A stretch of DNA of 64,000 nt from a virus (IMGVR_UViG_3300013383_000002:57437-121436), one strand, 5' to 3'. Positions 6,011 through 64,000 are shown, counted from the stretch's first letter. Notes: generated by a model not told the origin, from the sequence alone. Numbers and translations: made by a program.

Positions 6011-6262
6011 TTACTCAGCATCCTCAGAGGGAACAAAATTCTTGCCAGCGTCCGTTAGAACGGCGTAAGCAACAGGCTTCTCAGCACCCTCGACCTCTTC
6101 CTTCTCACGAACAACAAGACCCTTCTTCGTTAGGTCAAGAACATTCGCGCCGACAGAGCGAGCAGAACGACCAGTAGCATTAGCAAGCTCCTCAATAGAA
6201 ACCTTGCCGCCGTTATTCTTCAGATACTCAAAAACCTCAGAACTCTTACTTGTTAGAACCAT
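6011..6262 (-). CDS. small winged-helix DNA-binding protein
   Basis: VSIEELANATGRSARSVGANVLDLTKKGLV...LTDAG pattern; own TTGACA/TATAAT promoter. Confidence 0.7.
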   Translation of the reverse strand: MVLTSKSSEVFEYLKNNGGKVSIEELANATGRSARSVGANVLDLTKKGLVVREKEEVEGAEKPVAYAVLTDAGKNFVPSEDAE

Positions 6263-55269: not shown

Positions 55270-55897
55270 TCTGTTAGAAAGAGGGAAGAAAATTTGAGGA
55301 CTCAAAATTTTTGAGAGGAATACAAGAAAAACCTCTTATAACTGGAAATAAAAAAATCTGTTAGAGAAAACGGATAAGAATATTTTTGTAAGAAATAGAG
55401 CGTACAAGATAATGGTTTAGAAGTAAGGGAGTATAGAAGAAAGAAAAAAAGTAGAAAATATAGAGGAAGAAAAATAATATGGGAAAATAAAAGAGGAAGA
55501 AAAGAAAAAAAAATTAGAAGAAGGGTATAAATAGAAGGGCGTAAAAGAAGGAAGACAAAAGAAGGGGAGAAAGAAAAAAAGAGAAACGAAGGAAATAGAG
55601 AAGAAAGAAAAGAAAAGGGCGTAATCAATAGAACTAATAAGAGGGGAAAAGTAAAATTGGAGAAAAGAAAAAAGTAGAATAGAGGGAAGGAAGAGAAAAA
55701 ATCGTAGAAAAAGAGGGAGAAAAGAAAAAAAAATTCCAAAAAAGAGGGAGAAAAGAAAAAAAATAGAAGAAGGGAAGAGAAAAGAGGGAAGGAAGAGAAA
55801 AGAGGGGAGAAAGGAAAGGGGATAAAATGGGAGAAGTAGAAGAAGCAATGGTTTAGAAGCAATGGCTTAGAAGCAATGGCTTAGAAGCAATGGCTTA
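55270..55897 (+). repeat. purine-rich low-complexity tract ending in ~4 x 14-bp AGAAGCAATGG(C/T)TT
   Basis: strong A/G strand bias; tandem units from about 55841 to 55896. Confidence 0.85.
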
Positions 55898-56241: not shown

Positions 56242-56610
56242 TTAGGAAAGTTTATATCCCTTCTGGGTTCCCTTCTTACCCTCAATCTTCATATCAATCT
56301 TCTCAAGCGTTCCGTTCTCAACAAGGAGTTTCAGAAGAGAAGGCACCGACTGGGGCTTCACAGTTTCAGTCAGTCCCGCTGCTTCAATTAGCATAGTGGC
56401 AGTCTGCGGTTCATTCGTCATAACGTCCATCAGAGCGTTACGAATAGGTTCCTTCTCGGCGTCCTTCGCGGCTCGCTTCTCAGCTGTCTTCGCACGGTTC
56501 TTCTCATTCGCAGCGTCCATCAGTTCCAGCTCGTGTGCGGCGAATTCAACCAGTTCAGCGGGCATGTCTTCAGCGGTAGCGATAGTGTTCAGAAATTCTC
56601 TCTTAGTCAT
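56242..56610 (-). CDS. hypothetical DNA-binding-like protein
   Basis: MTKREF...KGYKL; paralogue of 58714-59091. Confidence 0.7.
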   Translation of the reverse strand: MTKREFLNTIATAEDMPAELVEFAAHELELMDAANEKNRAKTAEKRAAKDAEKEPIRNALMDVMTNEPQTATMLIEAAGLTETVKPQSVPSLLKLLVENGTLEKIDMKIEGKKGTQKGYKLS

Positions 56611-57228
56611 ACTAGTATCCTTCTTTCAATTTTCTAATAGATGGGTTTATATCCCCGATTTTAGAAATGGAAGAAGATAATCGAACGTAAGTCGCAGCTT
56701 ATGCGCGGTTCCACTATGTGGAGGTTTCGTTTCTTCTTTCCCTCAGTTTCTATATATATTATACCAGTTTTTTGCTGCGAAATCAAAATTGCGCCAGTCA
56801 CGTAACATGACATTTTAGTGCGCGCTGTCATGTAACATTGCAATTCGCCGTGTCAAATTTACAGTCGCAAAAAATGTTTTTTATTTTTTAAGAGGAAATT
56901 TCCATTGGTGCCTCTACAAATTTCATATAAGCCAGCTTATATAAGCCCAGCTTATGCGTCCGAAATTTGACTTTTTATTGAAGTCCCAGCTTATTCGCAG
57001 CTTATACGATGCCGCGCTGCGAAATTTGACAAGAAGGCGAACGTTCGCGCGGACACGACATATTATACGTAGGGCGGCAAATGTAATGTTACGTGACAGG
57101 AAGCGCAGTAAAGTGATATGTTATGTAAGACGTAAAATTTGACAAAAAGTGGAATTTAGACGAAGAACGTCTAAATACGGCAAGAAAGAAAAAAAGGACA
57201 CATAACGCGTCCTTTTTCTCTCTATACG

Positions 57229-57975
57229 TCAACGCACTACAAACTTATTTTTTGTCTTATAATACGTCGCGCGCGTTCCTCTCACGATGAAACGGCCTTC
57301 CGGAATGTCAATTGTAAAGTCGCGCATCACTTTGCGCTCAATGGAACGAAATGCTTGATAGTCCCCTTCTAAATCCGCGCCCCGGTCAAGACAACTAAAC
57401 AGAATTTCGGACTCAATTTCACTATCAGAAAGCGCGGTGTGATCTTCGACAAATGAAGTGTCAGAACGGATGTAACGCGTCAATGTTTCGGCAGTCGTAG
57501 AATAGTGCCCGCTTTCGGTAAAAGCCCCGTTTTCTTCGCACCATGCGCGGAAAGTATCATCAATCATAAAGTGATGAACGAATCCGCGAATGTCGGAAAT
57601 TGGAACATTGTCAAAAGGATTGATAACTTTAAACCAATCACAATTGAAGTCAAAAACTTTTTCATCGAAAGAGGAATTATATGCGAATGCGCGTTCAACT
57701 TCATAATTTCGGAAGTCGCGGAGCATCTGTTGTGTCACGTAACCGAACTTTTCCATTCGGATGGCGCGCGCTCTCAAAGCTCCGACATAAATAGAACGTT
57801 TGTTTGCGTAGTATGCTGTATTGAAAAGTGGGAGATTGTGCCAAATTTGCTCAATGACAAACTCACGCTTTACAAGGCAAGCGCGGGTTTCTGTATCAAG
57901 AATCAAATAACCGACGTTATAACAATAGGGTTTCTCTAGGCTTGTCGTTTCCGTGTCGAATACACAAATGTTCAT
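57229..57975 (-). CDS. DEDDh 3'-5' exonuclease
   Basis: VFDTETT, AYNSSFD, HTALSD. Confidence 0.85.
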   Translation of the reverse strand: MNICVFDTETTSLEKPYCYNVGYLILDTETRACLVKREFVIEQIWHNLPLFNTAYYANKRSIYVGALRARAIRMEKFGYVTQQMLRDFRNYEVERAFAYNSSFDEKVFDFNCDWFKVINPFDNVPISDIRGFVHHFMIDDTFRAWCEENGAFTESGHYSTTAETLTRYIRSDTSFVEDHTALSDSEIESEILFSCLDRGADLEGDYQAFRSIERKVMRDFTIDIPEGRFIVRGTRATYYKTKNKFVVR

Positions 57976-58146
57976 TTTCAAAATCCTTTCATATTTCATT
58001 GAGGGGTCATTCATCCTCTCTCAACGTGCTCATATTATACCATAGGAATTTGAAAAAGTCAAGAACTTTTTTTGACGTGTTACATTGCGCGCGACTCTTA
58101 GTTTTAGACGTTTTTCGTCTAAAAAAAGAAAAAAGAGAATGACGCT

Positions 58147-58530
58147 TTACGCGTCATCCTCCTGCTTTTCCTTTTCGCGTTCCTCTCGCTTGCGCTTTGC
58201 CTCTGCGCGATTCTTTTCATCACGTGCAATTTTTTCGGCTTTCTTTGCGTCGGCCTCCGCCTTTTTCGCGCGCTTTGCCTCGGTTTCTTGCGCGTAATTC
58301 TGCGCCTCCTCGTAACCGTCATAAGGAATATAACATTTATTTGCCTTATCGCGCTCACCCTTAGGAATACTAAAAGCAATATTCAAATATCCCTCGTCAT
58401 CGCCGCGCACCCACGGAATCGAAATAGTTCCGCTCTTGACCTGTAACACATCTTCGCCTTTACTCTCGAACAGTTCGCGCACTGCGGACATAAACTCTTC
58501 GCGGATTGCAGTTTCAATTTTACTTGCCAT
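58147..58530 (-). CDS. hypothetical protein with basic coiled-coil tail
   Basis: own promoter; ends DA-stop. Confidence 0.7.
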   Translation of the reverse strand: MASKIETAIREEFMSAVRELFESKGEDVLQVKSGTISIPWVRGDDEGYLNIAFSIPKGERDKANKCYIPYDGYEEAQNYAQETEAKRAKKAEADAKKAEKIARDEKNRAEAKRKREEREKEKQEDDA

Positions 58531-58713
58531 ACTTTTTGACTTCCTTTCTTTCATTTGGTAACTAGATTATAGCATAAATTTTTGAAAAAGTCAAGATTTA
58601 TTTTTTTCAAATTTGACGTTTAACATGGCACTCGCGCGAAAACTTTTAGACGATGGACGTCTAATTCCTTTGATAAAAAAAGGGACGTCATATTATGTGA
58701 CGTCCCATTACGT

Positions 58714-59091
58714 TTACTCGGCATCGCTCGGTTCGGTGCCTGCGAGGGTGTAACCCTTCGCCTTGCCCTTCCCCTTTACCTTGACTTCAGCAGAAGTCAC
58801 TTCACCAGACTTCTCAAGAATACGGAGCAGGGAAGAACACTTCTGAACACTCTTCAGTTCCGACTTTGCCTCAAAGAGGTCAGAGGCGGTAATGGGATGG
58901 TCGGCAGTTGCGAGAACTTCGCGCACGATGGGCAGAAGTGCTTCGTTTTCCTTCTGCGCCTTGGTCGGCTTTGACGAACGTTCGGCGTTCTTCTTATCCA
59001 TTGCAGACAGAAGCGCGGACGCCTTTTCGGAAATTTCGGCAGGGATGTTTCCCATAGACAGAACGGCGTTGTAGAATTCACGAGTAGTCAT
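58714..59091 (-). CDS. hypothetical DNA-binding-like protein
   Basis: MTTREF...SVQKCSSLLR...KGYTL. Confidence 0.7.
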   Translation of the reverse strand: MTTREFYNAVLSMGNIPAEISEKASALLSAMDKKNAERSSKPTKAQKENEALLPIVREVLATADHPITASDLFEAKSELKSVQKCSSLLRILEKSGEVTSAEVKVKGKGKAKGYTLAGTEPSDAE

Positions 59092-59423
59092 AATTTTTCC
59101 TTCCATTTTTAGCGTTGGTCGCAACCCTATTTTTTATATTCAAGAGGTTTCCTCTCTTGATTACGCCCTTATTATATCATAGATTTTTGAATTTGTCAAG
59201 AGGAAAATTTATTTTTCAAACATTTTTGGATTGGTTCTGTATTGGTTTACCTTAGTGTTATTCCCTCTTGACATTATGAATTATATCATAATCCGCGCGG
59301 AAAATCAAGAAGAAAATTTAGAAATTCTGTCATGTAAGATGACTTCGCGCGAGAAATTTTAGACGAAGAACGTCTAATTGAAAATATAAGAAAAGCCCCA
59401 TAAAGGGGCAATTCTTTTTTTAT

Positions 59424-59672
59424 TCAACGTTTTTTCCATTCGACACGGCGTTCCATATCAATAAAAGTAATAGCGACTGTACAGAAAGATCTTTTCCCCT
59501 CTCCTTCATAATCCCACCTAGCAACATAAGCAAGGCCATTTTTGCGCTTTCTCCATGCGGTGACTGATCTTTCCGGGGCGTGCTCCTTGACAATCGCTTC
59601 GGCATAGTCCATGGCACGCTGAAGATTGCAAAAATATTCGCCGTTTACTCTGTAAATAGTCTGCATAGTCAA
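59424..59672 (-). CDS. hypothetical protein
   Basis: AGGAG RBS; own promoter. Confidence 0.6.
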   Translation of the reverse strand: MTMQTIYRVNGEYFCNLQRAMDYAEAIVKEHAPERSVTAWRKRKNGLAYVARWDYEGEGKRSFCTVAITFIDMERRVEWKKR

Positions 59673-59829
59673 TTCTCCTTTTTGTGGTAAGTCACAACCT
59701 ATTTTATTTTGTTGAGTTCCTGTCTCAACCTTGTAACTAGATTATAACATACAGATTTGATTTTGTCAATAGTTTTTTGAAATTTTTTTAGACGGTCTAC
59801 GTCTAATAAAAACAAAAAAAGGTGACGCC

Positions 59830-60288
59830 TTATGCGTCACCAATCGAACGGAGAAAATCAAAAATTTCTGTCACGTCATATGCCTGTCCGCCTGCTTCGC
59901 TCCATTCGTCGCGATTCTGTTTTTCATCGTCGAAAAGAAAACCCCCGCGCAACGTTCCGACTTTGCTTTTTGGCGTGCCATACTGGACAACGCAAATTTC
60001 ATCAAATCGAACGCTTTTCAAATGACGCGTAAGCCATTCAATTTTTGCGCGGCGAACTTCTTCTAAAAATTTTTCGTCGCGGTCTTTACTCCCCCACGAT
60101 ACAACACGGATTTTCCATCCATTACGCTGAAGAGTATTCAAACGTCGCGCAAGTCTTGACAGATTGAGAAGTGCGCGCGCGTCTTTATAGGGGCTTGCGT
60201 CGTATGCACGGATTTTGGGGAGCCAATCTTTGACGCCGTAAAAATCGACGATTGTTCCGTCCATATCCAAACTAATAATTTTTTCCAT
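59830..60288 (-). CDS. HAD-family 5'(3')-deoxyribonucleotidase-like protein
   Basis: LDMDGTIVD, K..WL..H, LFDD. Confidence 0.78.
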   Translation of the reverse strand: MEKIISLDMDGTIVDFYGVKDWLPKIRAYDASPYKDARALLNLSRLARRLNTLQRNGWKIRVVSWGSKDRDEKFLEEVRRAKIEWLTRHLKSVRFDEICVVQYGTPKSKVGTLRGGFLFDDEKQNRDEWSEAGGQAYDVTEIFDFLRSIGDA

Positions 60289-60440
60289 TTCAAAAACTCC
60301 TTTCTTTTTGTATCTAAATTATATCATAGTTTTCTTTTTTTGTCAATAAGAATTTTAGAAAATTTTGTCATATAAGATAACATCGGTTTAGAAACTTTTA
60401 GACGACTGACGTCTAAGAGAAATGGAAAAAGAGGGACGCT

Positions 60441-60806
60441 TTACGCGTCCTCTCCTACGATTTCCCGAATATCATCAGGAAGTAGTTCACAAATTCTTGC
60501 CATAATGTCAACCGCAGTCAGCCACCCTTCGACATCATCACCAACTTCTTCTTTATTGACAAGTGGCGCACCCATTGCTTCAATCAGTCCACGCTCGTGT
60601 CCATAACTTCCGCCATGGCAAACGCAATCGGCCACTCGTTCACCCGTGCGAACGTCCATAAAGATAACTTGCGGGCGTCCAAAACATTCTGTTACAGAAT
60701 AAATATACTTTTCCGGTGGGCAAATCTTCAAGTAGTCAATGAGTTTGTCCATTTCGGTCTTTTCAGGAATACCGCCATACATTTCTTCGAATGCTTTATA
60801 ATCCAT
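60441..60806 (-). CDS. hypothetical protein
   Basis: CHGGSYGHERGLIE...VEGWLTA; own promoter. Confidence 0.72.
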   Translation of the reverse strand: MDYKAFEEMYGGIPEKTEMDKLIDYLKICPPEKYIYSVTECFGRPQVIFMDVRTGERVADCVCHGGSYGHERGLIEAMGAPLVNKEEVGDDVEGWLTAVDIMARICELLPDDIREIVGEDA

Positions 60807-61182
60807 TTTAGAATCTCCTTTTCTTTTATTTAGTAACTAAATTATAACACAAAAAAATAAAAAAGTCAAGAACTTTTTTATTAGACGAATCACGTCTAAT
60901 TTCCCACTAGAAGAAACGCGCGGTGATGGTTGCCCGCGCATTTCAATGTAAACAAAACAAAGACACAAAAGAAAGGAAGCACTATTTTCTCCAACCATCA
61001 GGAGGAAACAGTATCAATAAAGAAGATTTTTCCTAACCCACCCACAACCATCTTCTTTTTGATTTAGTAAAATTTTCTGAAAATCTTTCCCTTGACTATT
61101 TATATTATACTATATTTTCTGAAAAAGTCAAGAAGAATATTTAGACGGAAGACGTCTAAACTAAAAAGAAAAGGCGACGCTT

Positions 61183-61573
61183 TATGCATCAACCCCATAC
61201 TTTTTTCATTACTTCTTTCAATTCTTCAATTCTATCGGCGGGCGGTACCAATAGAACAAGGCCTTATCATAAACAAAAAGACCTTTTTCTCTTTTATTAC
61301 AACTTCCGTCGCTACTCCAAGGAGAAATAATTCCCATGAAACCAAAAAATTCGTCAATAATTGGAATTGCTCTAACATCATCAACAAAAATTCCCCAAAT
61401 TTCAGTGCCATAAATTACGCGGTCAACAGGAACTACTTCTCTATCTTTACCGAAAAAAACCATATCTTGAGTATAACCGCCAATCTTTTCAAAGATTTTG
61501 TGCTTTTGACACCCAAATTCAGTATCAAAAACTTCTCCGCAAAGGTCACAAATTATTTACTAACAATAGTCAT
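61183..61573 (-). pseudogene. frameshifted small gene
   Basis: ATG at 61573 stops after 6 codons; the shifted frame reads ICDLCGEVF... into the 61218-61463 ORF. Confidence 0.5.
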
Positions 61574-62296
61574 TTTTATTATTCCCTTCCTTTCATTTCG
61601 TAATTATATTATATCATAGGAATTTCTTTTTGTCAAGATTTTTTTAGACGAAAAACGTCTAATACCCCACTAAAAAAAGAGGATTGACGCATTACACGTC
61701 AATCCTCTCACATTCTTCTAAAATTAGAATATATCTATCTTCAATGTTGATTTTATTCAAAACATCTTCAAGTGAAGAAATTGCCTCATCTAATTCATAG
61801 GCGTCCGGTGTAAGCCTGGCGGCAGTTTTCAGATATTGATACGCATTTTGAATTATCTTAAATTCGATATCTTCAAGAACAATTTGTTATCTTTCTATGA
61901 TTTTGTTTTCAATCTTCATTTCAAAGAACCCCCATAAAAATTTTGAAAAAATTCCAGTTAGCAATATTTGGCCGGGTAAAAATTGCATTGAAATAAGAAA
62001 AGATGAACCAAAGAACGATTAGAACACCAATCCCACCAAGGAAATTTCCAAAAAATTTTTTAGTCTTCATATACTTGCGCATAACAAATCCACTCCCCGA
62101 TACAAAGATTAGCGCGCCGCATTGCGTCTACAAAAGTCAAGCCAAAAATTGTTGAGTATTCAAAAGTTTCTAAGTTTTTGATGAAGTAAGTATTCATTGC
62201 TTTCCCCTTTCTTTAGCTCTATTATATCATACTTTCGAAAAAAGTCAAGAAGTTTTTTTAGACGAAGAACGTCTAAGAAGTTGGAGCTGAGCTGAT

Positions 62297-62470
62297 TCAA
62301 GTCCAGCTCTCTCCTTCTCGATTAGGCAGGATCGTCAGCTTATAGACACAGCTTCCAGCTTGGATGTAGCTTTCTATAAGGCGTGGCAAGTCCTCTAACG
62401 TGGCAATAGTGTCCTCACTCATTCCGCGCCGGCCATTGATGCCATTGTCGTGTTCAACTAAAACTGTCAT
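62297..62470 (-). CDS. hypothetical protein, 57 aa
   Basis: GGGAG RBS; promoter TTGACT/TATAAT. Confidence 0.55.
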   Translation of the reverse strand: MTVLVEHDNGINGRRGMSEDTIATLEDLPRLIESYIQAGSCVYKLTILPNREGESWT

Positions 62471-62711
62471 GTTATATATCTCCCTTCGCGGCCTGTATAA
62501 TATCCATTTCTCACCGGCTTGTCTATATTATATCACATAAGGACGAAAAGTCAAGTCTTGTAACATGGCAAAGTGACGTCTAATAGTTAGACGTATTCCG
62601 TCTAAAAATGAATAAAAGTTACATAAAACGACTTAGACGGGTCACGTCTAATTTAGACGTGACCGGGAGATGACATGTAAGATGACATCAATAGATAAAA
62701 GAAAAGACGCT

Positions 62712-62966
62712 TTATGCGTCTTTTCCTACGTAAACGATAATTTCATGCCGGTTTGTCAAGTCAAGTCCTTTTACATACCATCGTTCAATCTCTTCCGGAA
62801 AGAGGGCTTCACCCGTAGCAGAGTTGATATAATGCCCGCATCCGTCATTATCAAAATTGCTGTTACTGAAAATCCATTCCGCGCCCGTTTCGTCATCATA
62901 GATATAATCGGGATATGCATAAGCGACATAGTCGCAGAAGTCCGCTAAGGTAATAGTTTTTTTCAT
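62712..62966 (-). CDS. hypothetical acidic protein
   Basis: AAGGA RBS; ends DA-stop. Confidence 0.65.
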   Translation of the reverse strand: MKKTITLADFCDYVAYAYPDYIYDDETGAEWIFSNSNFDNDGCGHYINSATGEALFPEEIERWYVKGLDLTNRHEIIVYVGKDA

Positions 62967-63113
62967 TTTATATTCCTTTTCTGCCCGTCATGCCGATAGC
63001 TCAGCGTCATGTCATTTTAGGTTACGCACTCCATTCTTCTGTCATGTCATAGCGCACAATCAGTCTAAAATTCATTTCCATGTTACATAGCTCTTTTTCT
63101 AGGTGATGGACGC

Positions 63114-63626
63114 TTAAAGCGTCCACCCATTTTTCAGCCATTCGGCAAACTCCATAGCCTGCCCACACTTGATGCAAGCATTCAACGCGTCAACCAGCTT
63201 GAAATACTTCTTTCCGTGCGGCGCGTTTAGCTTATTATTCCAAAATGTTTGAATAGTGATTTTCCGTTGTCCGTTGGTAGAAGTTTTTTCACGGAGTAGT
63301 CCAACCTCAGCCAGCACTAACAAAAAGGTTTCGCGCGTCATGATATAGGCGTTCTGTCCGTCTAGCTCTCTATTTCCGTCAACTTTCGGACAGTAAATAA
63401 CCCTGCTAGAGCCTTTAACAAGCTTTTCGCCGTCATTACCCAGTTCACCCGCTCCGGTTTTTACCTCATGATATACACCCGTCCGGCGCAGGTCAGCACG
63501 CCCCGCCCGCGCGACTTTCGACATCATATGCAAGTGCTCTTTGCAAGCGCGTTCGAACGCTTTGCCCGTCGCGCCCGTATCCGTGGACAGATAACCATAC
63601 TTTGCAACGTAATCGTTCATATTCAT
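63114..63626 (-). CDS. hypothetical protein, possible PD-(D/E)XK fold
   Basis: G..FE...ADL......EVKTG. Confidence 0.55.
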   Translation of the reverse strand: MNMNDYVAKYGYLSTDTGATGKAFERACKEHLHMMSKVARAGRADLRRTGVYHEVKTGAGELGNDGEKLVKGSSRVIYCPKVDGNRELDGQNAYIMTRETFLLVLAEVGLLREKTSTNGQRKITIQTFWNNKLNAPHGKKYFKLVDALNACIKCGQAMEFAEWLKNGWTL

Positions 63627-63923
63627 TTTTCAAATCTCACTTTCTCGTGGTCTATCCCGCGCGTCATTTGTTTTTGTTTACGTCCTTATTATAGCGCCAA
63701 CGTCTAGCATTGTCAACGACTTTTTTCTTTTCGTTGTCATTTTACATTCCGTCAAATCCACCAAAGTGAGCGACGTATAACGTGTCTTTGTTTGTGCAGA
63801 ATGACGAAGCCTCGCGATGACGTATAACGGGGTAGGTTTTGTCATCTGACACGATAAAATACAGACCGGGGTCCATTTAGTAATTTTACTTTTTCTATGA
63901 CGCGTTACATTTCGGGGCCTCGC

Positions 63924-64000
63924 AACTTTTCTCACTGAAATTAGAAACTTTTCTCACTGAAATTAGAAACTTTTCTCACTGAAATTAGAAACTTTTCTCA
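63924..64000 (+). repeat. 22-bp perfect tandem repeat AACTTTTCTCACTGAAATTAGA, 3.5 copies to window end
   Basis: units at 63924, 63946, 63968, 63990. Confidence 0.92.

Follow-up and report, generated by a model that had tools for sequence, protein, structure and literature searches.

Small genes delimited by repeated transcription signals are known from T4-type phages, in which promoter/stem-loop elements (PeSLs) repeatedly combine a strong sigma-70-type early promoter with AT-rich upstream DNA and a stem-loop terminator (PMC2839356; PMC4122927). In hypervariable regions, PeSLs precede small genes whose function is unknown (Arbiol et al. 2010, PMC2839356; Comeau et al. 2014, PMC4122927). PeSL-bounded insertions, deletions and replacements in close relatives have been attributed to homologous recombination, and PeSL mini-circles have been demonstrated experimentally (PMC2839356; PMC4122927). 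The locus analysed here lies in a window of 64,000 nucleotides (IMGVR_UViG_3300013383_000002:57437-121436; positions below are those of the window), whose source is a 121-kb gut/rumen phage. It resembles PeSLs in having a strong early promoter per repeat, a joined stem-loop terminator and motif-bounded changes between close relatives. However, PeSL stem-loops vary in sequence and position and lack an invariant, sequence-specific palindrome, whereas the present locus has, apart from its stem-loops, a 19-bp dyad whose sequence is fixed, which stands at a fixed distance from the -35 hexamer and which changes as a whole between lineages. Since the replication genes include a DnaE Pol III alpha subunit with inteins and gyrase A/B, and the nearest named record is uncultured phage phAss-1, we consider these phages unrelated to T4 and the array an analogue of PeSLs, not a member of that group. 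The hosts of these phages are probably Clostridia. We found no paper in the literature describing this phage architecture.

Three other systems are comparable. In phi29, the small phage protein p4 binds dyad sites upstream of the sigma-A promoters A2c, A2b and A3, in helix register, and contacts RNA polymerase, which turns the early promoters off. The sites described here are also dyads upstream of sigma-A promoters, but phi29 has a handful in one control region, whereas the early units of this phage carry 12, one each, and those of its relatives as many as about 35, for candidate binders. Stoperators, as bound by L5 gp71, are asymmetric, orientation-dependent, monomer-bound and located inside the transcribed DNA of temperate phages. 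In Cluster A mycobacteriophages, stoperators are reported to block transcription beyond the primary operator (PMC9283540), and a study of the evolution of immune specificities in these phages reports a repressor that discriminates between the stoperators of related phages (PMC6550527). Our sites share with stoperators the many copies of one repressor-type site over the intergenic gaps of a phage genome; unlike them, they are symmetric, lie in an untranscribed gap beside the -35 and occur in the early array only, in a phage that lacks an integrase. Finally, integron attC cassettes are likewise single-gene units between perfect or imperfect inverted repeats, with variable gene content, but they are promoterless and depend on one common promoter, while each unit here has its own consensus promoter and terminator; neither an integrase nor a fixed crossover point is found, and the site is invariant in sequence rather than recognizable by structure only.

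Results

The palindrome array and its transcription units

A pattern search for TTAGACG-N5-CGTCTAA returned 12 exact copies in the window, all within 57156-62651 (Table 1), against no match in 100 of 100 shuffles of the sequence. The complete 121,436-bp phage genome contains no further copy, in agreement with the sequence-only reading, which had reported 12 copies with fixed arms and a variable spacer and none in the first 57 kb of the window. The centres of the AGACG and CGTCT cores are separated by 10 bp (about one helical turn), and the spacer is free. All array genes lie on the minus strand, and the unit layout with leftward promoters that had been proposed is borne out by 11 minus-strand promoters, each matching 11-12 of 12 consensus positions and most carrying TG before the -10. 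Most array genes are followed, on the same strand, by a hairpin and a T-run. Each 19-bp site occupies untranscribed DNA, flanked on one side by the terminator of a minus-strand unit and on the other by the sigma-A promoter of the following unit; with the T-run before it and the promoter after it, the site is outside normal transcripts. Genome-wide, 9 of 15 exact-consensus promoters have a site within 90 nt upstream, and only 4 of the 15 fall outside the 115.5-121.2 kb region of the genome. The same 19-base palindrome tags almost every strong early promoter of the phage. Only 4 of the 12 sites in the window are 7-11 nt from the -35, the others being 18, 32, 41 or 50-51 nt away, so direct contact with the polymerase cannot be identical at every unit.

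Table 1. Sites, transcription units and genes of the array, in the order of minus-strand transcription.
Feature	Position	Strand	Remarks
First unit, without palindrome	62699..63716	-	promoter 63716-63688; terminator 62727-62699
Genes of first unit	63114-63626; 62712-62966	-	170 aa; 84 aa
Extra half-sites beside site 1	62571-62581, 62653-62659	.	read from sequence
Site 1	62633..62651	.	exact match; distal member of double site
Site 2	62587..62605	.	exact match; 32 nt before -35 at 62554
Unit	62297..62554	-	promoter 62554-62527; 57-aa gene 62297-62470
Site 3	62258..62276	.	exact match; 9 nt before -35
Unit	61677..62248	-	promoter 62248-62221; terminator 61709-61677; two short overlapping frames 61921-62197, probably a broken small gene
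Site 4	61644..61662	.	exact match; 7 nt before -35
Unit	61175..61636	-	promoter 61636-61608; decayed gene; terminator 61191-61175
Site 5	61141..61159	.	exact match; 9 nt before -35
Unit	60915..61131	-	promoter 61131-61104; 32-aa frame (very short); GC hairpin ~60920-60945
Site 6	60881..60899	.	exact match; 11 nt before -35
Unit	60434..60869	-	promoter 60869-60841; 121-aa gene 60441-60806; terminator 60450-60434, TAA in loop
Site 7	60398..60416	.	51 nt before -35; second dyad 60366-60382 in between
Unit	59821..60346	-	promoter 60346-60318; terminator 59841-59821
HAD/NT5C 5'-deoxynucleotidase, 152 aa	59830-60288	-	Pfam NT5C E 1.4e-5; PHROG 5'-3' deoxyribonucleotidase E 7e-10
Site 8	59788..59806	.	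exact match; 18 nt before -35
Unit	59395..59769	-	promoter 59769-59741; 82-aa gene 59424-59672; terminator 59409-59395
Site 9	59359..59377	.	50 nt before TTGATT -35; second dyad 59328-59344 in between
Unit	58682..59308	-	promoters 59308-59280 and 59199-59171; winged-helix protein a 58714-59091; terminator 58706-58682
Site 10	58646..58664	.	exact match; 51 nt before -35
Unit	58133..58594	-	promoter 58594-58566; 127-135-aa protein 58147-58554; terminator 58163-58133
Site 11	58104..58122	.	exact match; 41 nt before -35
Unit	57195..58062	-	promoter 58062-58034; terminator ~57195-57215
DEDDh 3'-5' exonuclease	57229-58014	-	PHROG 20187 E 3e-25
Site 12, last of array	57156..57174	.	after exonuclease terminator; no close consensus promoter after it
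Past array	56242..56812	-	promoter 56786-56758 drives winged-helix paralog b 56242-56610; second dyad 56796-56812, 9 nt before this promoter

The 170-aa family of the first unit is common to ACG- and CGTACG-type relatives. The decayed gene stops after 6 codons, and relatives encode the intact 132-aa protein. The deoxynucleotidase has a DMDGT motif, and the exonuclease motifs D20/E22, N113/D117 and H192/D197 are invariant. The 127-135-aa protein is predicted to have a globular head and a 55-residue charged helix (AF2 pLDDT 93) for which fold searches gave no clear match; its family occurs in 41 of 44 loci with arrays versus 9 of 36 without.

The neighbouring palindrome belongs to the terminators

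A second palindrome with the same core had been noticed at or near stop codons. GACGC-N5-GCGTC with at most one mismatch does occur 11 times in the window versus 0.69 expected, and we recovered the positions listed for it (57197, 58141, 59824, 60435, 61176, 61686, 62706 and 63109), as well as four unrelated proteins ending in Asp-Ala-stop (QEDDA, SIGDA, VGEDA and VGKDA). The distance between the two palindromes, previously put at 33-40 bp, measured 35-42 bp, apart from a single 73-bp case. Although present, this element forms the stem of intrinsic terminators of the ordinary kind, whose loop holds the stop codon, and the GACG core common to terminator and site is restricted to this clade. Of 479 sites, 455 have a hairpin in the 80 nt upstream, with the T-run at -19 to -11, and the gap from terminator to site is broad (4-19 nt).

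Arms are conserved within phages and replaced between lineages

In 57 related arrays with 506 sites, all 14 arm bases were exact in 489; 15 sites had one mismatch and 2 had two, none of them compensatory, and a reversed pattern used as control gave 0 matches. Spacers vary between copies, and also between sites heading the same gene in different relatives. Exact arms, uncompensated mismatches and varying spacers mean that selection acts on the sequence of the arms; neither gene conversion nor mere pairing would account for them. The distance from site end to -35 was 9 nt in 110 of 381 cases, the largest class, and 7-12 nt in 203 of 381, with minor classes near 19, 32, 42 and 51 nt; in the 9-nt class the palindrome spans about -63 to -45.

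Relatives retrieved via the exonuclease carry other palindromes at the same position, namely TTAGGTGG, TTAGGTGT, TTAGATGT, TTTCGTACGT and GTAGTCTG; further types are TATCTGTT and TTAGACG arms with an N6 spacer. The modal gap to the -35 is 9 nt for TTAGACG, TTAGGTG and TTAGATG and 7-8 nt for CGTACG and GTAGTCT; the N6-spacer phage has no modal gap, and the TATCTG type has too few sites for a mode. The palindrome type differs even between close relatives, with exonucleases ~80% identical. One contig (3300028888_000066) carries TTAG[A/G]TGT-N3-ACA[T/C]CTAA in all four combinations, A/C and G/T hybrids among them, and in its 7 A/C hybrid sites pairing in a hairpin is impossible. These hybrid sites suggest that half-sites are read independently, so that the palindrome appears to unite dyad symmetry, a fixed promoter position and independent half-sites, as an operator would.

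These data bear on whether the palindrome acts as a hairpin or cruciform, be it a second terminator, a processing or stability signal in the RNA of read-through transcripts, or an N4-like extruded DNA hairpin promoter, which we consider very unlikely. The palindrome does stand directly after a terminator and is a perfect 7-9 bp inverted repeat, which as single-stranded DNA folds into a weak hairpin of -5.5 to -7.6 kcal/mol, more stable than that of shuffled sequence (z -3.4 to -4.8). But all copies in a genome have one sequence in common, which structure alone does not need; the 17 variant sites have uncompensated single-arm changes; one phage has A/C hybrid half-sites; and no T-run follows the palindrome, which normal transcripts do not include. 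A search with PF00940 (T7/N4-type polymerase) gave no match, its controls being silent too, and the largest proteins are tail proteins and DnaE.

It is also quite unlikely that the palindrome serves another DNA transaction requiring a sequence-specific phage protein (a pause or anchor in stepwise genome entry, a nicking or nuclease site, or a marker protecting or targeting early DNA), with the promoter link being secondary. In T5, a deoxynucleotidase (dmp) is one of the pre-early genes carried by the DNA that enters first, and the placement of a 5'-deoxynucleotidase, together with an exonuclease, inside the array is alike. Moreover, the arms are fully exact at 97% of sites whereas the -10 hexamer is exact in 70%, a strictness unusual for operators. 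However, all four palindrome types retain the sharp 9-nt gap to the -35, and this speaks for the promoter. Contigs from four runs continue past the 22-bp repeats at the genome ends, which are therefore not physical ends, so that a first-entering end is hypothetical.

A borrowed host transcription factor or nucleoid protein could time the early promoters through the palindrome, and differences between palindromes would then reflect different hosts. Phages do carry sites for host regulators, an example being the CtrA sites reported in Alphaproteobacteria phages (PMC9437464), and the winged-helix phage proteins remain candidates as binders. We nevertheless regard a host factor as unlikely, since close relatives (exonuclease ~80% identical) differ in palindrome and one phage mixes two half-site versions. 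We also scanned one genome per species for 185,579 species for the palindrome followed by 7-12 nt and TTGAC, a pattern that misses other geometries: multi-site matches were found on short phage-like contigs only, with no host regulon seen, and the other matches were about nine singles, approximately the chance expectation by our own estimate.

Candidate binding proteins

The best candidate binders are the winged-helix proteins a and b, which belong to one family. Protein a is predicted to form a helix-turn-helix with a beta wing (AF2 pLDDT 85), with profile matches to MarR/Lrp/CodY winged helices and Foldseek matches to those of PadR/Fur/Orc1. The helix of paralog b is KPQSVPSLLKLL, and among relatives this recognition helix is as invariant as the palindrome itself. 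Among ACG-type loci, 14 of 21 have a helix of the type K[PV][QA]S[IV]PSLL[KR]; the counts are 1 of 5 for CGTACG loci, 0 of 16 for the remaining types and 1 of 39 for loci lacking an array. Paralog b is missing from 5 ACG-type loci with enough flank, and the in-array paralog has a variable recognition helix. In the ATGT/GTGT lineages, a paralog fusing the head to a winged helix changes from ..LVMQ[IV]G.. to ..TVMAVG.. at the start of the recognition helix, in step with the A-to-G change of the half-site (6 versus 10 loci), while two other winged-helix paralogs of the same phages show no such split by site type. Exceptions are one GTGT phage with a Q-type paralog and an N-type paralog that occurs with either site type, and the covariation may rest on a single evolutionary switch.

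Cassette turnover

The suggestion that the array gains and shuffles genes is confirmed by cassette maps of relatives, which differ by whole units: cassettes are gained, lost and moved, one and the same cassette can take another position in another phage, and the blocks of an alignment stop at sites or promoters. As to circular recombination products such as mini-circles, one study provided contigs from four runs, which are collinear and have no joints, though contigs drop rare forms. The site bounds single-gene units of variable position, as it would if a site-specific recombinase crossed over there to take up and excise cassettes in the manner of integrons. We find this highly improbable. The observation that no recombinase was visible holds for the complete genome, in which neither a tyrosine (PF00589; control genomes positive 14/14) nor a serine recombinase (PF00239) was detected; no cassette lacks a promoter of its own; moved cassettes are joined at the ribosome-binding site, within the promoter or to the left or right of the spacer, hence at no single point of the palindrome; and the palindrome holds a constant distance to the -35, for which recombination has no need. 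Variable joints and the lack of a recombinase make the shuffling resemble T4 PeSL recombination, not an integron.

Discussion

The sequence-only reading had offered two explanations, a regulon of a dimeric phage protein controlling first-expressed genes and an integron-like cassette system. The first fits the invariant arms with a free spacer, the fixed position relative to the -35, the lineage-specific palindromes and the hybrid half-sites, whereas the second is not supported. The presence of the palindrome at nearly every strong early promoter, and of other palindromes there in relatives, makes it most likely a docking site for a regulator made by the phage, and not an integron-like recombination site. 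We therefore favour, with a probability of roughly 0.6, a protein-binding operator within an early-promoter module, bound by a phage-encoded two-fold symmetric protein; invariant arms, lineage-specific palindromes and hybrid half-sites fit such a protein and not a hairpin. The anatomy, the selection on arms, the fixed geometry, the lineage-specific palindromes, the hybrid half-sites and the cassette turnover are observed, and from them we infer protein binding, the identity of the binder and the direction of control.

On the minus strand, each unit consists of a sigma-A promoter, one small gene and an intrinsic terminator whose loop contains the stop codon, followed by 4-19 nt and the palindrome; A-rich DNA, typically 9 nt long, then leads to the -35 hexamer of the next unit. 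In the 9-nt class, the palindrome occupies the region normally touched by the alpha subunit of RNA polymerase. In the model that we propose, the palindrome is an operator. A symmetric phage protein reading both half-sites (TTAGACG, often TTAGACGT) could place all tagged early promoters under joint control. Either repression or activation is conceivable; because the promoters are already of consensus strength, the likeliest action would be to limit or shut off early transcription and to stop polymerases that run past the terminators. Separately, every joint repeats ~100 bp that are nearly identical in terminator, palindrome, promoter and ribosome-binding site, and these offer places for homologous recombination, through which relatives gain, lose and move single-gene cassettes.

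Organization of the palindrome array

The window comprises the final 64 kb of a complete virus record of 121,436 bp. The pattern TTAGACG-N5-CGTCTAA occurs 12 times in the window, every copy lying inside 57156-62651, and a search of the whole 121,436-bp genome found no further copy; 100 shuffles gave no match. Genes of this stretch are exclusively on the minus strand, along which each unit comprises, in order, a promoter, a single small gene, a G+C hairpin with a T-run, a few bases, the palindrome and the next promoter. The promoters match TTGACA-17-TATAAT at 11-12 of the 12 positions, and TG usually precedes the -10 hexamer. The sequence-only reading had counted the same 12 palindromes, with none noticed in the first 57 kb, and had described a second palindrome at or near gene stop codons and unrelated proteins ending in Asp-Ala-stop. 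All three observations hold. Eight of the 11 window matches to GACGC-N5-GCGTC are these second palindromes and form terminator stems, with the stop codon TAA in the loop; because the GAC-GCN of the 5' stem is translated as Asp-Ala before that TAA, the proteins share their ...DA ends. A core common to terminator stem and palindrome was rejected outside the ACG type (relatives with the window's palindrome): GACGC stems form 26 of 159 ACG-type terminators, and terminators of the other palindrome types contain no matching stems.

In the window, palindromes and -35 hexamers are separated by 7, 9, 9, 11, 18, 32, 41, 50, 51 and 51 nt. One of the 12 sites is the distal half of a double site, and the last has no strong promoter behind it. 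Two units look decayed, the first by a stop after six codons (the relatives' protein is intact, with 132 aa) and the second by breakage into two short overlapping frames, which fits dispensable cargo.

Coordinates of features in the window and, where stated, elsewhere in the genome
Feature	Coordinates	Strand	Remark
Winged-helix paralog 'a'	58714-59091	-	in array; helix SVQKCSSLLRIL
Winged-helix paralog 'b'	56242-56610	-	just beyond last site; helix KPQSVPSLLKLL
Third winged-helix paralog	6011-6262		weak match
Head-plus-helix protein	58147-58554
Exonuclease	57229-58014
First decayed unit	61218-61570		stop after six codons
Second decayed unit	61921-62197		two short overlapping frames
Second dyad	56796-56812
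Second dyad	56826-56842
Second dyad	57082-57098
Second dyad	59328-59344
Second dyad	60366-60382
Second dyad	62554-62570
Second dyad	62671-62687
Second dyad	63840-63856
Degenerate tandem repeats	55302-55897		~600 bp, purine-rich (A/G-rich plus strand), periods 14-31
Repeat AGAAGCAATGGCTT	55841-55897		four near-perfect copies
22-bp tandem repeat AACTTTTCTCACTGAAATTAGA	63924-64000		3.5 copies at window end; also at genome start
DnaE-type DNA polymerase III alpha gene	L118:8269-13278 (genome 45268-50277)		outside window; intein and LAGLIDADG domains

Other features of the genome

The record's 69-bp 'direct terminal repeat' is built from copies of a 22-bp tandem repeat (Table). Contigs of four public runs extend beyond it into a TTGACT...TATAAT promoter, so the ends of the record are assembly ends and not physical ends. 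TTCGCGCGAR and its near variants number 48 in the window against 8.6 expected; they are spread throughout and belong to a genome-wide excess of CG words that is not linked to the array. The purine-rich repeat region contains no credible gene. Apart from the DNA polymerase, the phage encodes gyrase A, gyrase B and a class of ribonucleotide reductase.

Selection on the palindrome and its position at promoters

An exact-pattern scan of viral contigs matched at least 111 stretches. Among the matches listed, many contigs of 90-139 kb carry 5-24 sites apiece, with the same architecture as in the window. The array statistics are based on the 57 stretches that have four or more sites; in these, the median site spacing is 471 bp and orientation relative to the promoters is uniform within every array. 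The arms are exact at 14 of 14 bases in 489 sites, with one mismatch in 15 and two in 2, and none of the variants is compensatory; the reversed pattern, used as a control, matched nothing. The five spacer bases differ among copies, and also among sites heading one gene in different phages. Exact arms around a variable spacer indicate that selection acts on the arm sequence itself; gene conversion is disfavoured because it would have homogenised the spacer too, and selection for pairing alone because different copies could then have different arms. The promoter hexamers are conserved less strictly than the arms, TATAAT being exact in 264 of 376 cases.

Among 381 cases, 110 have exactly 9 nt between the end of the site and the -35 hexamer and 203 have 7-12 nt, with minor classes near 19, 32, 42 and 51 nt. 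The terminator stem lies 4-19 nt away from the site, with distances evenly spread over that range. The sharp gap on one side and the broad gap on the other therefore assign the site to the promoter and not to the terminator. Strict 10.5-bp phasing of the longer gaps was considered and not confirmed, as the periodicity statistic is spread over 10-12 bp and the observations are not independent. In the main class, the site spans approximately -63 to -45 and is followed by an A-rich 9-mer. The UP element and the alpha C-terminal domain occupy this region in sigma-70-type promoters. Located past the T-run and ahead of the start point, the site lies outside normal transcripts.

Replacement of the palindrome among related phages

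We gathered 80 loci via the exonuclease gene, with identities from 90% down to 28%. The window's type, TTAGACGT/A-N3, is accompanied in this set by TTAGGTGG-N3, TTAGGTGT-N3, TTAGATGT-N3, TTTCGTACGT-N3, GTAGTCTG-N3 and TATCTGTT; one phage carries TTAGACGT-N4 (ACG6 in the scan, where it was counted as seven-base arms with N6), and some loci are without any array. Two further scans added numerous arrays of the ATGT and GTGT types. On the exonuclease tree, palindrome types differ between close relatives, revealing type switches, although this was a quick tree with two paralogs mixed, from which independent switches were not counted. The promoter geometry is maintained through these replacements: the palindrome types with enough sites end 7-9 nt before the -35 hexamer, and the gap is exactly 9 nt in 56 of 106 TTAGGTG sites and 56 of 88 TTAGATG sites with a nearby promoter. 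The phage with the N4 spacer shows no modal gap.

Contig IMGVR_UViG_3300028888_000066 (loci L176, L261, L266 and L314) contains both TTAGATGT and TTAGGTGT half-sites, asymmetric hybrids included. Its sites follow TTAG[A/G]TGT-N3-ACA[T/C]CTAA in all four combinations (14 A/T, 12 G/C, 7 A/C and 4 G/T in one 20-kb locus), so the two halves vary independently. This bears on whether the palindrome acts as a hairpin, which we consider very unlikely, since A and C cannot pair at the A/C hybrid sites. Taken together, the type replacements, the constant geometry and the independent halves call for a sequence-specific reader that is itself two-fold symmetric and differs among phage lineages, most simply a phage-encoded protein.

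The reader could instead be a host factor. We searched 185,579 bacterial and archaeal species, each represented by one genome, for the palindrome followed by 7-12 nt and TTGAC, and found no host regulon, which makes this explanation unlikely. The multi-site matches were only short phage-like contigs binned into MAGs, and the others were some nine singles, roughly the chance number by our own estimate. The bins are mainly Acutalibacteraceae, Ruminococcus, Eubacteriales and other Clostridia. The contigs inside them are phage contigs and hint weakly at the host. Short contigs packed with palindrome-tagged promoters (L371-L393) include a few binned to Nanosyncoccus, Dehalococcoidales and Muribaculaceae, all unlikely taxa.

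Candidate binding proteins

One winged-helix family supplies the only DNA-binding fold that could be recognised in the arrays (AF2 model pLDDT 85), with profile matches to MarR, Lrp and CodY domains (E 6e-4 and weaker) and Foldseek matches to PadR, Fur and Orc1 winged helices (E ~1e-2). Each phage has two to four paralogs, and the window's genome has three (Table). The 'b'-type helix, K[PV][QA]S[IV]PSLL[KR], is almost as invariant as the palindrome. It is present in 14 of the 21 ACG-type loci and in one of the 5 CGTACG loci, which have an ACGT core in common with the ACG type; none of the 16 loci with other types and one of the 39 that lack an array contain it. Five ACG-type loci with sufficient flank do not have it. 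A homodimer prediction for the in-array paralog scored 0.17 against a mark of 0.42 and was not used as evidence. As the winged-helix alignment lacked a sufficiently conserved stretch, relatives were gathered with the exonuclease alignment.

The head-plus-helix protein, whose head is acidic, is present in 41 of 44 loci with arrays versus 9 of 36 without. It has no convincing fold match (Foldseek E >0.5, VIA-align matches to the long helix only), falls into no Pfam or PHROG family and lacks an informative Atlas neighbour. In the GTGG, GTGT, ATGT and TATCTG lineages the head is fused to a winged helix in paralogs of 160-190 aa (e.g. L159:6338-6836, L168:3680-4193, L179:18965-19448 and L161:18894-19428), and the two families are therefore functionally linked; the window's genome has no homologue of this fusion. 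The fusion paralog has an orthologous group in which six ATGT loci show ..LVMQ[IV]G.. at the start of the recognition helix and ten GTGT loci show ..TVMAVG.. there, a split absent in two other winged-helix paralogs of those phages. The contig with mixed half-sites has a single fusion copy, of the Ala type. We take this covariation of helix and half-site as a lead; it has exceptions and may stem from a single evolutionary event. The GKIVYGL group, a winged-helix paralog beside the head-plus-helix gene of ATGT and GTGT phages, was rejected as type-matched, as it shows no split by palindrome.

A second, looser dyad, TGTCATGT-N-ACATGACA (TGTCATGTAAGATGACA), occurs eight times around the array with up to three mismatches (Table). 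It is found only in the window's phage and its closest relatives, with 6-11 copies per locus (66 matches versus 1 in the control). Its gaps to the -35 hexamer cluster at -1, 9, 19, 29 and 39 nt. Of 58 copies, 16 follow a TTAGACG palindrome at a distance of 14-16 nt. At 59359 and 60398 such copies explain the 50-51-nt gap; in the remaining unit of this class, with 51 nt at 58646, nothing matches the dyad. The copy at 56796-56812 lies 9 nt before the promoter of the gene for paralog 'b'. Judging from this arrangement, a two-step circuit is possible, in which one winged-helix protein would act at the second dyad before the gene of the other, and the latter would then shut all the palindrome-tagged promoters.

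Cassette turnover without a recombinase

The relatives have 408 single-gene units, whose proteins form 177 clusters. Four backbone genes keep a constant order (HAD/NT5C 5'-deoxynucleotidase, winged-helix protein, protein with globular head and long charged helix, DEDDh exonuclease), with variable units between them. The same cassette can occupy differing places in different phages, as clusters 36, 26, 9 and 4 exemplify. On the 3' side of the exonuclease, an identical terminator, palindrome, promoter and leader run into three different genes, with the seam at the ribosome-binding site; a single gene occurs downstream of three different promoters; and where a cassette is absent from two phages, the remaining seams lie on opposite sides of the spacer.

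The integron-like recombination-site system offered as an alternative by the sequence-only reading is not supported: gene gain, loss and movement are real, but the comparison of gene order revealed no fixed joints, the seams being scattered over ribosome-binding sites, promoters and both sides of the spacer. The recombinase that was not visible in the window is missing from the complete genome too, which encodes neither a tyrosine nor a serine recombinase. Contigs of four public runs with this stretch show no joints and no circles, bearing in mind that contigs drop rare forms. Given the scattered seams and the missing recombinase, site-specific recombination at the palindrome is extremely improbable. 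Promoter-early stem-loop (PeSL) cassettes of T4-type phages undergo the same turnover, there by homologous recombination (PMC2839356, PMC4122927), but PeSLs lack an invariant dyad, which the array has. In its cassette behaviour the array is unlike an integron, and integron-like cassette arrays in phages can come from repeated regulatory modules without a recombinase.

Discussion

The palindrome is probably the operator of a phage-encoded regulator, a reading to which we assign a probability of about 0.6. This alternative had also been raised from the sequence; selection on the arms, promoter geometry, type replacement and half-sites support it, while the binder is a predicted candidate. A phage-encoded dimer, presumably from the winged-helix family, would bind around -54 and would limit or shut off early transcription and block read-through. 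We infer repression because the promoters are already of consensus strength. That the palindrome serves some other DNA transaction seems quite improbable to us.

Stoperators of Cluster A mycobacteriophages are asymmetric, bound by monomers and located inside transcribed DNA. In having a putative regulator site in many copies, the array resembles them (PMC9283540, PMC6550527). A literature search with both half-site words returned only primers and unrelated sequences, no paper was found on palindromes at early promoters of these phages, and the phAss-1 paper does not mention promoters or palindromes. The novel elements are a series of palindrome replacements in relatives that a single gene connects, half-sites in hybrid combinations, the scan of host genomes and the candidate proteins named above.

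To our knowledge, nothing is known about the control of early genes, which decide host takeover, in the abundant uncultured Clostridia phages of gut and rumen. An invariant site one helical step before each early promoter, swapped wholesale by lineage, is a direct handle on the regulator. With the palindrome, early genes and their promoters can also be annotated from sequence alone across hundreds of metagenomic phage genomes, and the lineage palindromes with their proteins form a natural series of matched variants for changes in DNA-binding specificity. It is a doubtful but conceivable extension that palindrome and regulator form a fast-evolving specificity pair, an early-promoter 'barcode' in a large clade of virulent gut and rumen Clostridia phages. 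If true, lytic phages would have a counterpart to the immunity groups known from temperate phages: each lineage's regulator would switch only promoters carrying its own palindrome, and co-infecting relatives could silence or escape each other's early programme.
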